A stretch of 63,594 nucleotides of DNA, the filler included, from Reclinomonas americana ATCC 50394 (Eukaryota): the NCBI GenBank assembly GCA_048213135.1. It is 12 parts of 6 records of this genome, joined end to end, with 100 filler letters (N's around TTAATTAATTAA, not from the genome) between each part and the next. Parts side by side here need not be neighbours in the genome. Positions count along the whole stretch, not along the records: positions 15,540 to 23,775 come from PS015577.1; 11 more parts are not named here. One strand, 5' to 3'. Under the pieces are notes generated by a model, which saw nothing but the letters and a program-made list of their open reading frames with translations, was not told where the DNA came from and did not search any database. Below, piece by piece: positions 18,501 to 23,680 of this stretch. The translations under genes and the position numbers were made by a program. Each line of letters starts with the position of its first letter. Position 1 is the stretch's first letter.

Positions 18501-21500
18501 GACCGTTCGCTGAGAGTGGTGGTGGTGCGTCCGGACATTTCCAGCTCGCTCTGCTGCGAGCCAGTCATCTCCTGTGACGGCAGGCGACTGTCGCGCAGCT
18601 TGCGGCGTCGCTCGCGCCGCAACCACGACGTCGTCCGACGACCCGTGTTACTTGCCTCGCCGCCCTCGAAGCGCACGCGCGGAGAGTCGCTGCTGGTGCC
18701 CGCCGAGGTGTCCTCGCGGCGCAGGATGCCCAGCTGTTGTTGTTGTGGCTGGGAAGAAGGGAAGAGAGCGGGGAAGAGAGGAGGGAAGAGAGGGGGAAGA
18801 GAGGAGGGAAGAGAGGGGAAGAGAGGAGGGAAGAGAGGGGAAGAGAGAGAGGGAAGAGAGGTGGAAGAGAGAAAAGAGAGGAGGGAGAGAGGGGAAGAGA
18901 GGGGAAGAGAGACGGAGGGAGAGAGGGAGAGAAGGTCAGTGCTTGACTTTGAAGAAAGGACTCGAATTCTGCGTCGCTCACCTGCTGTTCACCGCGTTGC
19001 TCCTGGAGCTTCTCGCCACCAGTGAACTCCTTCAGCTTGGAGAGAATTAGCGGTGGATCAATGGTAAATGAAGGCAACCGACGCAAACCTGCTGTGGCTG
19101 GCGGCGCTGCTGTGACTTCTCACCACCAACGAGCTGTGTTGTGGTTGAGAGAAGGTATGATCACAGGAAGGGCACAGACTCTTCGTTTGCTGACCTGTTG
19201 TTCACCGCGTTGCTCTTGCAGCTTATCGCCACCAGTGAACTGCTGCTGCTTGGTGAGCAGGAGAAGGTCAGCGGCTGCTCACTGGCAAATAAAGACAGGC
19301 AACACACACCTCCTGTGGCTGGCGGCGCTGTGACTTGCGCTTCTCACCGCCGCCAACCTGCTGCTGTGGCTGGGAGACGGTTAGTGCACGATCACAGAAA
19401 AACTTCTTCGTTTGCTCACCTGCTGTTCACCGCGTTGCTCCTGGAGCTTCTCGCCGCCAGTGAGCTCCTGCTTCTGCAAGAGACAGGAGAGGGTCAGCGG
19501 CTGCTCACTGGCAAATGAAGGCAGTCAACACACACCTCCTGTGGCTGGGGGCGCTGTTGCGACTTGTGCTTCTCACCGCCACCCATTCGCTGCTGCGGTT
19601 GGGAGAAGGTTGGTGCACGATCACAGAAAAACGACACTACTTCTTCGTTTGCTCACCTGCTGTTCACCGCGTTGCTCCTGGAGCTTCTCGCCGCCAGCAA
19701 CTTGCTGCTGTTGTGACGATGGAGGAGGTCAGTCATTAACTTGAGGACACAACTCTTTCTTTGCTCACCTCTTGTCCGCGTTGTTGCTCCTGGAGCTTCT
19801 CACCGCCAGTGAACTCCTGCTGCTGTTGCGACCAAACGGTAAGTCGCTTGTCATTGTGCGACTACTACACACTGCCACGGCAAACCTCTTGCGGCTGACC
19901 ACGCTGCTTCTGTTTGCGCTTCTTACCGGTTCCGAGCTGCAGAAGAGAAACGTAAGTGCTTGACATGAGGGACTCTCCGTCCTTTTTGCTCACCTCTTGC
20001 GGCTGATGCTCTCGCAGCTCCTCACCACCGGTGATCTGTTGCTGCTGTCGCAATAATAAAGATGAGACGTGGCCCTCTTAGAAAAGGATCATCAAGACAC
20101 GGCGCACCTCTTGGCTCTTCTCGCCACCAGCAATCTGTGGAGGAAGAAACTGGTCAATGTGGGTTCTCGAAAAGGAAATAACGCATTCCTTGCTCACCTC
20201 TTGCTCGCCACGTTGCGCCTGGAGCTTCTCACCACCCGAGAACTGCTGCTGCTGTGAGACCAAAGCAGTCAGCGCCGGTATAGCAAAATCAACTCACATT
20301 CCGCACCTCCTCAGCCTGACCGCGTTTCTGCTGCTTGCGCTTCTTGCCGCCCGTGACCTGCTGCTGCTGTGACGACAAGAAATCAGCGGCAGCTCTCAAG
20401 GGGTTCATCTGCGGTCTCAACGCACTCCTTGCTGTTCGCCGCGTTGTTCCGTCAGCTTCTCGCCGCCAGTGAACTGCTGCTGCTGCTGTGGAAAGAAGAG
20501 ATCAGCTCGTTTCTCACAACGAGGCAATTACTTAGCAGCTCACCTCGTGTCCACTGCGTCGTTGTTCTGTCAGCTTCTCGCCGCCAGTGAACTGCTGCTG
20601 CTGCTGNNNNNNNNNNNNNNNNNNNNNNNNNNNNNNNNNNNNNNNNNNNNNNNNNNNNNNNNNNNNNNNNNNNNNNNNNNNNNNNNNNNNNNNNNNNNNN
20701 NNNNNNNNNNNNNNNNNNNNNNNNNNNNNNNNNNNNNNNNNNNNNNNNNNNNNNNNNNNNNNNNNNNNNNNNNNNNNNNNNNNNNNNNNNNNNNNNNNNN
20801 NNNNNNNNNNNNNNNNNNCGTGGCTGGCCGCTCTGCTGCTGCTTGCGCTTCTCGCCACCACCGAGCTGCTGCTGCTGTGGAGGGAGAAGATTGGTAATTG
20901 TTCTCGAAAGGATAATAATTGGGTCCTCACCTCTTGCTTCTCACCACCAGTGAATGGCTGCAGATGTGGCAATGGAGGAGGTAAGTACGTGAAGTTGAAA
21001 GGTCACAACTTCTTCTTTGCTCACCTCTTGTCCACGACGTTTCTCCGGGAGCTTCTCAACGCCGGTGAACTCCTCCTGCTGCGAAAATATAACAGTAAGT
21101 GGCAGCAGGGTAAGGTCAAGGTATGAACATACTCCCAGTCCGCACCTGCTGCAACTCGCCGCGTTGCTGCTGCTTGCGCTTCTTGCCGCCCGTGACCTGC
21201 TGCTGTGACGGAAAGAAGTCAGCAGTGGATTCTAAGGGACGCACTTCGCACTCAACGCACCCCTTGTTGTTCACCGCGTTGTTCCGTCACCGTCTCACCG
21301 CCAGTGACCTGCTGCTGCTGCTGCTGCGGAAAGAAGTCAGCAGTGGCTTTTAAGGGACTCACAACGCACTCAACGCACCCCTTGTTGTTCACCGCGTTGT
21401 TCCGTCAGCATTTCACCACCAGTGAACTGCTGCTGCTACAATGGAGAAGGTCAGCGAATATTCTCGAAAGACCACTCCATTTTCGCTCACCTCTTGTCCA

Positions 21501-23680
21501 CCGCGTCGCTCCTGCATCTTCTCGCCACCAGTGAACTGCTGCTGCTAAGAGGTACAGAGGCAGTCAGCGGTCGTTCACTGGAGTGCATGGCAGTCAACAC
21601 AAACCTCTTGTGTCTGCTTCTTGCGCTTCTCGCCACCGCCGAGCTGCTTCTGCTGTGGGGGGACAAGGTCGGCGGTTGTTCTCATGAAGACGGAAAGACA
21701 TTCGTGCTCACCTCTTGTCCACCGCGTTGGCCTTGGAGCTTCTCGCCGCCAGCGATCTCCTGCTGCGGGAGGAGAAGGTCAGCGAATATTCTCGAAAGGC
21801 AACTCCATTTTCACTCACCTCTTGTCCACCGCGTCGCTCCTGGACCTTCTCGCCGCCAGCAAACTGNNNNNNNNNNNNNNNNNNNNNNNNNNNNNNNNNN
21901 NNNNNNNNNNNNNNNNNNNNNNNNNNNNNNNNNNNNNNNNNNNNNNNNNNNNNNNNNNNNNNNNNNNNNNNNNNNNNNNNNNNNNNNNNNNNNNNNNNNN
22001 NNNNNNNNNNNNNNNNNNNNNNNNNNNNNNNNNNNNNNNNNNNNNNNNNNNNNNNNNNNNNNNNNNNNNNNNNNNNNNNNNNNNNNNNNNNNNNNNNNNN
22101 NNNNNNNNNNNNNNNNNNNNNNNNNNNNNNNNNNNNNNNNNNNNNNNNNNNNNNNNNNNNNNNNNNNNNNNNNNNNNNNNNNNNNNNNNNNNNNNNNNNN
22201 NNNNNNNNNNNNNNNNNNNNNNNNNNNNNNNNNNNNNNNNNNNNNNNNNNNNNNNNNNNNNNNNNNNNNNNNNNNNNNNNNNNNNNNNNNNNNNNNNNNN
22301 NNNNNNNNNNNNNNNNNNNNNNNNNNNNNNNNNNNNNNNNNNNNNNNNNNNNNNNNNNNNNNNNNNNNNNNNNNNNNNNNNNNNNNNNNNNNNNNNNNNN
22401 NNNNNNNNNNNNNNNNNNNNNNNNNNNNNNNNNNNNNNNNNNNNNNNNNNNNNNNNNNNNNNNNNNNNNNNNNNNNNNNNNNNNNNNNNNNNNNNNNNNN
22501 NNNNNNNNNNNNNNNNNNNNNNNNNNNNNNNNNNNNNNNNNNNNNNNNNNNNNNNNNNNNNNNNNNNNNNNNNNNNNNNNNNNNNNNNNNNNNNNNNNNN
22601 NNNNNNNNNNNNNNNNNNNNNNNNNNNNNNNNNNNNNNNNNNNNNNNNNNNNNNNNNNNNNNNNNNNNNNNNNNNNNNNNNNNNNNNNNNNNNNNNNNNN
22701 NNNNNNNNNNNNNNNNNNNNNNNNNNNNNNNNNNNNNNNNNNNNNNNNNNNNNNNNNNNNNNNNNNNNNCGCCGCCAGTGAACTCCTGCTGCAATGGAGA
22801 AGGTCAGCGCATGTTCTCGAAGACAACAAAACTCCTTTTTCGCTCACCTCTTGTCCACTGCGTCGCTCCTGGACCTTCTCCCCGCCAGTGAACTGCTGCT
22901 GCTCCTGCATTCATGATTAAAGCCAATCGCGGATCAACATTTAAATCACAAAACTTCCCCCTCTGGCACTCACCCGCCGCTCGCCACGCTCTTCACCGCC
23001 AGAGATCTGCTGCAAAGAAAGATCAGCAGCAGCGAGCAGAGTCACATACATCCCCTCAGCGCGTACCTCCTTTTGCACCTCCGCCTCCTCCTTCCCGCGA
23101 CCGCGCCGACCACGGTGGCGAGCACGCTGACGTTGCGACTGGCCTTCCACCTTCCCTTCAGCCGGAACCGACTCCTGCACCTCGCCCCCGTACCACTCCT
23201 CCTTGCGCTGCCCCTCGCCCTGCTCCTGCTGCGGCTGCTGCAACAGCGGCTGCCGCTCCTCCTCGTCCTCGTCGCCAGCCGCCTCCACGGTCTTCTCCTC
23301 GCCGCCGCCAAAGCCCAACAGCTTCGACAGCATGCTCGTCACCGACTCCATCACGCTGACTTCGCCGCCTTCGGAGCCGCCGGGGAGCACGGTGGTTCCG
23401 GCGGGAGAGCCGTCGACAAAGGTCATGAACGCGGGTGTCGTGGTGACGTTGAAGCGGCGGAGGGTGGTTTCGTCAAAGGCGTCAACGTCGACCTTTGAAA
23501 AGGGAAAGGGCGATGAGAAGGAGAAGGGGGGGGGAAGGGGGAAGGAGAAGGGAGAAGAGGAGGAGGAGGGAGGAGGAGGAGGAGGAGGAGGAGAGGAGGA
23601 GGAGGAGGAGGAGGAGGAGGAGGAGGAGGAGGAGGAGGAGGAGGAGGAGGAGGAGGAGGAGGAGGAGGAGGAGAGAGGAG

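Follow-up and report, generated by a model that had tools for sequence, protein, structure and literature searches.

We analysed a window of 63,594 nucleotides (nt), meaning the whole stretch of DNA considered here, from the genome of Reclinomonas americana ATCC 50394 (assembly GCA_048213135.1), and within it a gene carrying a long array of very small repeated exons, called the array gene below. The window has the character of eukaryotic DNA, with GT-AG introns, microsatellites and many gaps. Our reading is that the locus probably holds a single protein-coding gene, lying between about 24527 and 17258 on the minus strand, in which a thioredoxin-like head is followed by an acidic linker, a repeat domain and a disordered last exon, and which arose via tandem exon amplification and is spliced mostly constitutively. 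Exon 1 (24369..24527, minus strand) holds the putative ATG and the N-terminal half of the thioredoxin-like domain (M...LAK), without cysteine, as judged from the open reading frame (ORF), the ATG position and an alignment to a neighbouring paralogue, N1; its donor, AAG|GTTGCG, lies directly after 'LAK'. Intron 1 (23493..24368, minus, 876 nt) contains GA and GAG microsatellites and a join at 23776-23875 of the form N44-ttaattaattaa-N44. Exon 2 (23067..23492, minus) supplies the C-terminal half of the domain (VDVDAF...TPAFMTFVDG) and then an acidic linker rich in glycine and glutamate, has a net charge of -12 and ends at a GTACGC donor at 23066. In the micro-exon array itself (18982..23009, minus), 28 visible phase 0-0 exons (27-63 nt) alternate with GT-AG introns of 50-69 nt; two N gaps interrupt it, one of 903 nt at 21867..22769 that cuts exons E3 and E4 and one of 212 nt at 20607..20818 that cuts exons E13 and E14. 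The last intron (18749..18981, minus, 233 nt, phase 0) has a GTGAGC donor, a CT-rich (CCTCTCTTCCC)n tract and a CAG acceptor, and leads to the last exon (17258..18748, minus), which has 496 codons plus a stop at 17258-17260, is rich in G, E, R, Q and S with RRRK and RKKK clusters, and is predicted to be disordered. Every junction from ATG through stop is in phase 0, and the visible product has 1164 residues, 473 of them from the array.

A preliminary description of this DNA had proposed an array of at least 28 small exons, and this was borne out: 28 are visible between 23009 and 18982 on the minus strand, 24 of them complete and four cut by gaps. They were found using three-frame translation and motif-anchored inspection, as short open segments, each containing an x-G-G-E/K-K motif and lying between a pyrimidine tract plus CAG on one side and, on the other, a donor that is GTGAGC or resembles it. 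The four peptides quoted in that description were all located on the minus strand, QISGGEERGERR at 23009-22974, EQQQFTGGEKVQERRSGQE at 22904-22848, QQVTGGKKRKQQQRGELQQ at 21202-21146 and PFTGGEKQE at 20957-20931; elsewhere on the same strand, exon E8 lies at 21435-21379 and the gap-cut exon E3 starts at 22788. The sequence hidden in N gaps, put earlier at about 1.1 kb, comes to 1115 nt (212 + 903), and the larger gap could hold roughly eight further units at about 115 nt per unit. The complete exons measure 36, 57, 51, 48, 54, 57, 63, 57, 54, 27, 60, 60, 54, 27, 51, 51, 54, 51, 57, 54, 60, 54, 45 and 54 nt, giving nine distinct lengths (27, 36, 45, 48, 51, 54, 57, 60 and 63 nt) with a mode of 54 nt. 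Each of the 25 N-free introns between micro-exons is 50-69 nt long. Longer introns are also present in this genome, namely the 876-nt first intron of the array gene and one of about 1.5 kb in a DHX8 gene elsewhere in the window.

A tandem repeat with assembly gaps could also be a non-coding or decaying minisatellite, untranslated and lying in a long intron or between two genes, with the head exons splicing straight to the last exon or with head and last exon belonging to separate genes. A bypass of the array would keep the frame, as phase 0 applies both to the donor of exon 2 and to the acceptor of the last exon, and translation of the repeats has no support from homologues. We nevertheless hold this to be distinctly unlikely. 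None of the 28 visible exons contains an in-frame stop. The length is divisible by three in all 24 complete exons, which bears out the earlier claim that they are phase 0-0, whereas this is true of only 7 of the 27 N-free introns between exon 2 and the last exon. In-frame stops occur in 17 of these 27 introns and only three introns could be read through; retention would bring a frameshift or a stop in the other 24. With boundaries as drawn, splice signals are intact in the full set of N-free introns, each starting with GT and ending with AG (GTGAGC at the start in 11, CAG at the end in 23), a strict CTRAY motif lies 8-30 nt upstream of the acceptor in 15, and the last micro-exon has a strong GTGAGC donor. 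The guanine-cytosine (GC) fraction is 0.62 in exons versus 0.50 in introns.

The same boundaries are largely recovered when the reading frame is ignored. A splice rule that took the first AG past the last branch-like motif, and the first consensus donor past the GG motif, returned a length for 21 of 26 anchors and none for five; 18 of the 21 were in frame and divisible by three, and the three misses came from a donor-like GTCAG inside the exon (twice) and a wrong acceptor (once). When the six frames of the window were searched with a profile hidden Markov model of the exons, all 27 matches obtained were minus-strand ones within 18982-23012, and no score outside the array exceeded 5.5 bits.

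Codon-level comparison of the exons was made using an alignment, A1, of 24 exons (22 complete and two gap-cut; the two 27-nt exons, E3 and E13 were omitted). Nucleotide diversity at codon positions 1, 2 and 3 was 0.325, 0.215 and 0.371. The Nei-Gojobori ratio of nonsynonymous to synonymous differences per site (pN/pS) in the minus, or sense, frame was 0.46 over all pairs and 0.47 in 12 disjoint nearest pairs, versus 0.85 and 0.91 in the codon-aligned antisense frame; a Fisher test on rounded counts (38/128 vs 68/481) gave p = 1.1e-4. Two glycine codons (GGC/GGT/GGG) vary only synonymously in 23 of the 24 exons. Introns diverge by 25-28%, which is near the pS of 0.30, and together with a pN/pS of 0.47 this is the pattern expected of translated exons set among nearly neutral introns. 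The minus frame is under protein-level constraint. Both the contrast between the two frames and the synonymous variation of the Gly-Gly codons argue further against an untranslated minisatellite, and they also bear on another reading, in which the coding strand is the plus strand and the repeats are Leu-rich LLFTALLLELLAASELLLL segments in ORFs of up to 148 codons. Plus-strand ORFs over the array do exceed the minus-strand ones in length (e.g., 19072-19518, 148 amino acids), but with an antisense pN/pS of 0.85-0.91, near neutrality, with the greatest variation at what would be its first codon position, and with the minus strand carrying the splice signals (GT-AG, branch, pyrimidine) as well as the head exons and the last exon, we regard plus-strand coding as extremely improbable. 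Separately, the antisense of the last exon is open for 472 codons (17159-18577, plus strand) and would encode a Leu/Arg/Ala-rich peptide; such an open frame is probably what is usual for GC-rich coding DNA.

The array was built by tandem duplication of an exon together with its intron, as the preliminary description had suggested. Tandem Repeats Finder (TRF) reports periods of 107, 118 and 225 nt, the last with 3.4 copies, and the introns of nearest units are 72-75% identical. The accompanying claim that introns had diverged much more than exons holds in direction and not in magnitude, the difference being a factor of about two: the 12 nearest exon pairs have an identity of 0.87 in exons versus 0.72-0.75 in the flanking introns, and all 253 unit pairs 0.62 versus 0.545. 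The array probably grew through unequal recombination, the unit being first an exon with its intron (about 115 nt) and then a two-exon unit of about 225 nt made up of an acidic and a basic exon.

In the product of the array, Q accounts for 28% of residues, G for 18%, E for 16%, and K and R for 8% each; the consensus is QQQxTGGEKLxEQRxxQE, about 18 residues per repeat and one exon for each. This highly hydrophilic repeat (grand average of hydropathy, GRAVY, -2.0), with one phase 0-0 exon per repeat, agrees well with the modular disordered tail that had been proposed. The exons fall into two classes, 20 being acidic or neutral (QQQFTGGEKLQEQRGEQQ type) and eight basic (QQLGGGEKRKQQ or TGGKKRKQQ type; GGGEKRKxQ); the charge of the basic ones is +2 to +5, and each has a KKRK, KRKK or KRK cluster. 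Over the 3' third of the array the class changes with every exon, in keeping with the 225-nt TRF period. Three copies of the tripeptide GGE are also present in the exon 2 linker, where the exon profile does not detect them. By a crude test, no hydrophobic segment was seen in the visible product, with Kyte-Doolittle means over 19 residues peaking at 0.95 and an average of -0.1 for the first 30 residues, and there is therefore no signal peptide or membrane segment. With its KKRK and KRK clusters in the basic exons, the tail might, at a guess, be nuclear or associated with nucleic acid, with the head acting as a binding module. A second repeat-protein candidate is found elsewhere in the window, where an uninterrupted ORF at 7617-8762 (plus strand) encodes a tandem peptide repeat of roughly 20 residues (…ATQRRKEEQQRSDAKGSSNA…) that is not split by introns.

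How such an array would be spliced is suggested mostly by its introns. These are near minimal in length, each with a GT donor, a CTGAC-like branch site, a pyrimidine tract and a CAG acceptor, and each would be recognised as a unit. With minimal introns, nearest-neighbour splicing and mostly full inclusion are to be expected, despite the short exons and some weak donors, and at most low-level in-frame skipping would occur. The exons would then be joined mostly constitutively into a polyampholyte tail of roughly 470-650 residues, and variation would arise mainly at the DNA level, as repeat copy number. Some further variation may come from the acceptors. In 18 of 27 cases CAG directly follows the acceptor, often as a CAG run, which is a NAGNAG-type tandem layout, so that alternative choice at CAG|CAG would gain or lose single glutamines in frame.

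The preliminary description went further and proposed an isoform generator like the micro-exon genes (MEGs) of Schistosoma, in which symmetric exons would be included or skipped in many combinations to yield tails that vary in length and charge. It is correct that any subset of exons stays in frame, all 24 complete exons being phase 0-0; this is arithmetic and not evidence of use, and since a constitutive array needs phase symmetry equally, the symmetry does not discriminate. Short exons and weak splice sites have been linked to skipping across eukaryotes (in the account given by PMC6142364), and the array has both, the weaker donors being GTTTGC (twice), GTTTGT, GTCAGC and GTGTGT (twice). It would also be logical that skipping among acidic and basic classes could tune net charge, and the tandem-acceptor layout could add small variation. 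The same source associates exon skipping with longer flanking introns, whereas those of the array are 50-69 nt, far from the 0.1-5 kb given for MEG introns in PMC10526429. The modal exon is 54 nt rather than 15 bp, the hydropathy maximum of 0.95 leaves no room for the signal peptide that is constant in MEGs, and no sequence similarity was found in searches of the repeat and the last exon. A MEG-like generator is thus not supported, given the introns, the modal exon and the missing hydrophobic stretch, and we consider it unlikely. Its stronger form would be an independently evolved, schistosome-like system of exon choice, in which acidic and basic exons, 28 or more in number and perhaps some 37, are interchangeable and are included stochastically or under regulation despite minimal introns; this seems to us similarly unlikely. 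If true, it would mean thioredoxin-headed proteins that vary from molecule to molecule in tail length, net charge and clusters resembling nuclear localisation signals.

Several points weigh against our own reading of a single, mostly constitutively spliced gene. The splicing of the array is read from sequence alone, exon boundaries were in part chosen by the analyst, and the weak donors at several introns would favour skipping. It also should be considered that PMC6142364 names Klebsormidium and Bigelowiella as species in which skipping goes with exons and introns that are both short, which means that skipping is compatible with tiny introns. Part of the multiple-of-three variation in exon length is slippage of the CAG runs with which most exons start, which keeps the reading frame without any selection, and only about five indels fall outside such runs. 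Alignment A1 was built on the sense translation and so somewhat favours the sense frame in the pN/pS comparison, and selecting the nearest pairs on exon identity makes exons and introns look more different than they are. The link between exons 1 and 2 spans the join at 23776-23875. Finally, the array contains two gaps, and mis-assembly may have occurred, which leaves the number and order of exons uncertain. Even so, we continue to favour one minus-strand gene with mostly constitutive splicing. The sequence shows its exon and intron anatomy, the constraint on its frame and its history of duplication; that the array is spliced, that this is constitutive, and any function are inferred.

The head of the gene is best understood through its neighbours. 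The thioredoxin-like domain claimed earlier is recovered once the two exons are spliced and set beside a neighbouring paralogue, and is not seen in either exon by itself, as Pfam gives no match for exon 1 or exon 2 singly, even at E <= 10. In local BLASTP the spliced 117-residue head aligned with N1 over about 100 residues at E 9e-9, and with a second neighbour, N2, at 6e-5; exon 2 alone matched N1 at E 4e-5. N1 (13750-14397, minus) has a Pfam Thioredoxin (PF00085) match at 1.2e-12 and a CGAC site, N2 (12181-12741, minus) matches Thioredoxin at 2.1e-9 and has no cysteine at the site, and a third thioredoxin-family gene (26139-26522, plus) matches the same family and carries WCGPC. These three genes lie within 15 kb of the array gene, and together with it they make up a local cluster of paralogues that differ in their tails. 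A phase-0 intron after 'AK' occurs at the same point in the array gene, N1 and N2, and this common position also supports the link between exons 1 and 2 across the join. The spliced head has no cysteine in its 117 residues, and the CGAC of N1 aligns with 'NDAK' (within SKNDAKS); with the cysteines lacking and CGAC replaced, the head would therefore be a redox-inactive thioredoxin-like domain.

We searched widely for homologues of the repeat and the last exon. A phmmer search of the last exon against 1.84 billion representatives gave no matches and the ESM Atlas gave none that was usable; in a metagenome scan 278 stretches fitted the last exon's peptide pattern, none of which was confirmed by tblastn. 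For the repeat, a 47-residue ORF containing exon E24 was compared with longer proteins and its three candidates yielded no match, and of 205 stretches fitting the peptide pattern of a narrower alignment, A2, none was confirmed. Pfam found nothing on the five exons long enough to scan. A profile search of the PDB with the repeat returned only two matches, both at E 0.27 and to a mitoribosomal protein, which we judged to be chance. No other sampled lineage appears to have a recognisable copy of the repeat or the last exon. As a control, a DHX8/PRP22 exon of the window retrieved 7996 library proteins with a best identity of 80%, from which it follows that the protein library searched contains neither the organism nor its close kin; the blanks therefore say little about related species and are not proof of a single-species gene. 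The DHX8/PRP22-like DEAH helicase gene itself lies at 52732-55267 (plus), its exons split by the intron of about 1.5 kb.

Beyond the array gene and the thioredoxin cluster, three paralogous genes lie at 39211-41586 (minus), 45856-48734 (plus) and 59099-62038 (plus), with ankyrin repeats (Pfam Ank_2, E 1e-18 to 1e-20), followed by a Q/E-rich, probably coiled-coil stretch and then a protein-kinase C-lobe (Pkinase, 5e-6); the three also share conserved sequence ahead of the start codon. Scanning the window for Rfam families and tRNAs gave nothing. The window also contains eleven joins of 100 nt, each made of two runs of 44 N flanking 12 letters, at 4095-4194, 15440-15539, 23776-23875, 27617-27716, 36267-36366, 37948-38047, 40691-40790, 52289-52388, 56166-56265, 57750-57849 and 62323-62422. 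The letters were read for the join in intron 1 only, where the 12 letters, ttaattaattaa, have stops in all six frames. With eleven joins, the window is therefore a chain of short contigs, and their order from one join to the next is set by the assembler.

Should the gene model hold, this locus would be a very clean case of the assembly of a long disordered repeat domain, in which copies of an exon-plus-intron unit multiply and selection continues to act on frame, splice signals and residue chemistry. A pattern that is best known from animals, in collagen, other symmetric-exon genes and MEGs, would then be seen in a gene whose introns are minimal in length. It would also offer a natural test of whether identical-phase exons with introns of 50-69 nt are spliced faithfully or leak in-frame skipped products. 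Taken as it stands, the array gene looks like a structural curiosity rather than a demonstrated mechanism of diversity.

Comparison with known systems places the gene more exactly. Symmetric, duplicated exons in disordered proteins are familiar from the PEVK region of titin and the repeat exons of treacle (TCOF1), and a 1988 report by Davis and colleagues, going by its title, is said to concern tandemly repeated exons encoding 81-base repeats in Schistosoma mansoni transcripts, in which every repeat would be a separate exon with a length divisible by three. Like the Schistosoma MEGs, the array gene has short exons, mostly multiples of three and flanked by longer terminal exons, a disordered product and no homologues beyond its lineage. 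MEGs, as characterised in PMC10526429, have 10-20 exons of 6-81 bp, mostly 15 bp and in multiples of three, and introns of 0.1-5 kb; their products are secreted, the N-terminal signal peptide is constant, and alternative splicing is documented. The array gene, in contrast, has at least 28 exons, mostly of 51-60 nt and obvious tandem duplicates, tiny introns and no hydrophobic N-terminus; its exons (27-63 nt) are all multiples of three, but only 3 of the 24 complete ones are 36 nt or shorter. As long introns and a signal peptide are both lacking, it should not be filed as a MEG.

Genes for disordered proteins in the human genome are described by Schad, Kalmar and Tompa 2013 (PMC3632108) as tending to have symmetric exons, often produced by tandem duplication. 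The array gene resembles them in its symmetric exons, its low-complexity, charged, disordered repeat and its internal tandem duplication, and differs in that all its exons are phase 0-0 and its introns minimal, while those are animal genes whose introns are long and in which such exons are often alternatively spliced. A parallel in mechanism is fibrillar collagen, in which arrays of 54-bp exons are proposed to have arisen by exon-plus-intron amplification (Yamada et al. 1980, as summarised in PMC2852846), with a secondary two-exon unit of 54+45 according to the same summary. In both cases no codon is split at either end of the exons in a long succession of small ones, 54 nt is the commonest exon length, and variants differ from it by multiples of three (45, 57, 60 and so on). 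The 225-nt acidic-plus-basic pair duplicated in the array gene recalls the two-exon unit of collagen, and in both cases splicing is presumed to be constitutive. Unlike fibrillar collagen, the array gene has no Gly-X-Y pattern (no glycine at each third position) and no sequence similarity to it, and it combines introns of 50-69 nt and the lack of a secretion signal with a thioredoxin-like head. On this comparison the array would be best accommodated by collagen-type tandem exon amplification, which is a mechanism and not a homology family, and the array gene is a homologue-less addition to a known class, that of repeat-protein genes made by tandem exon amplification.

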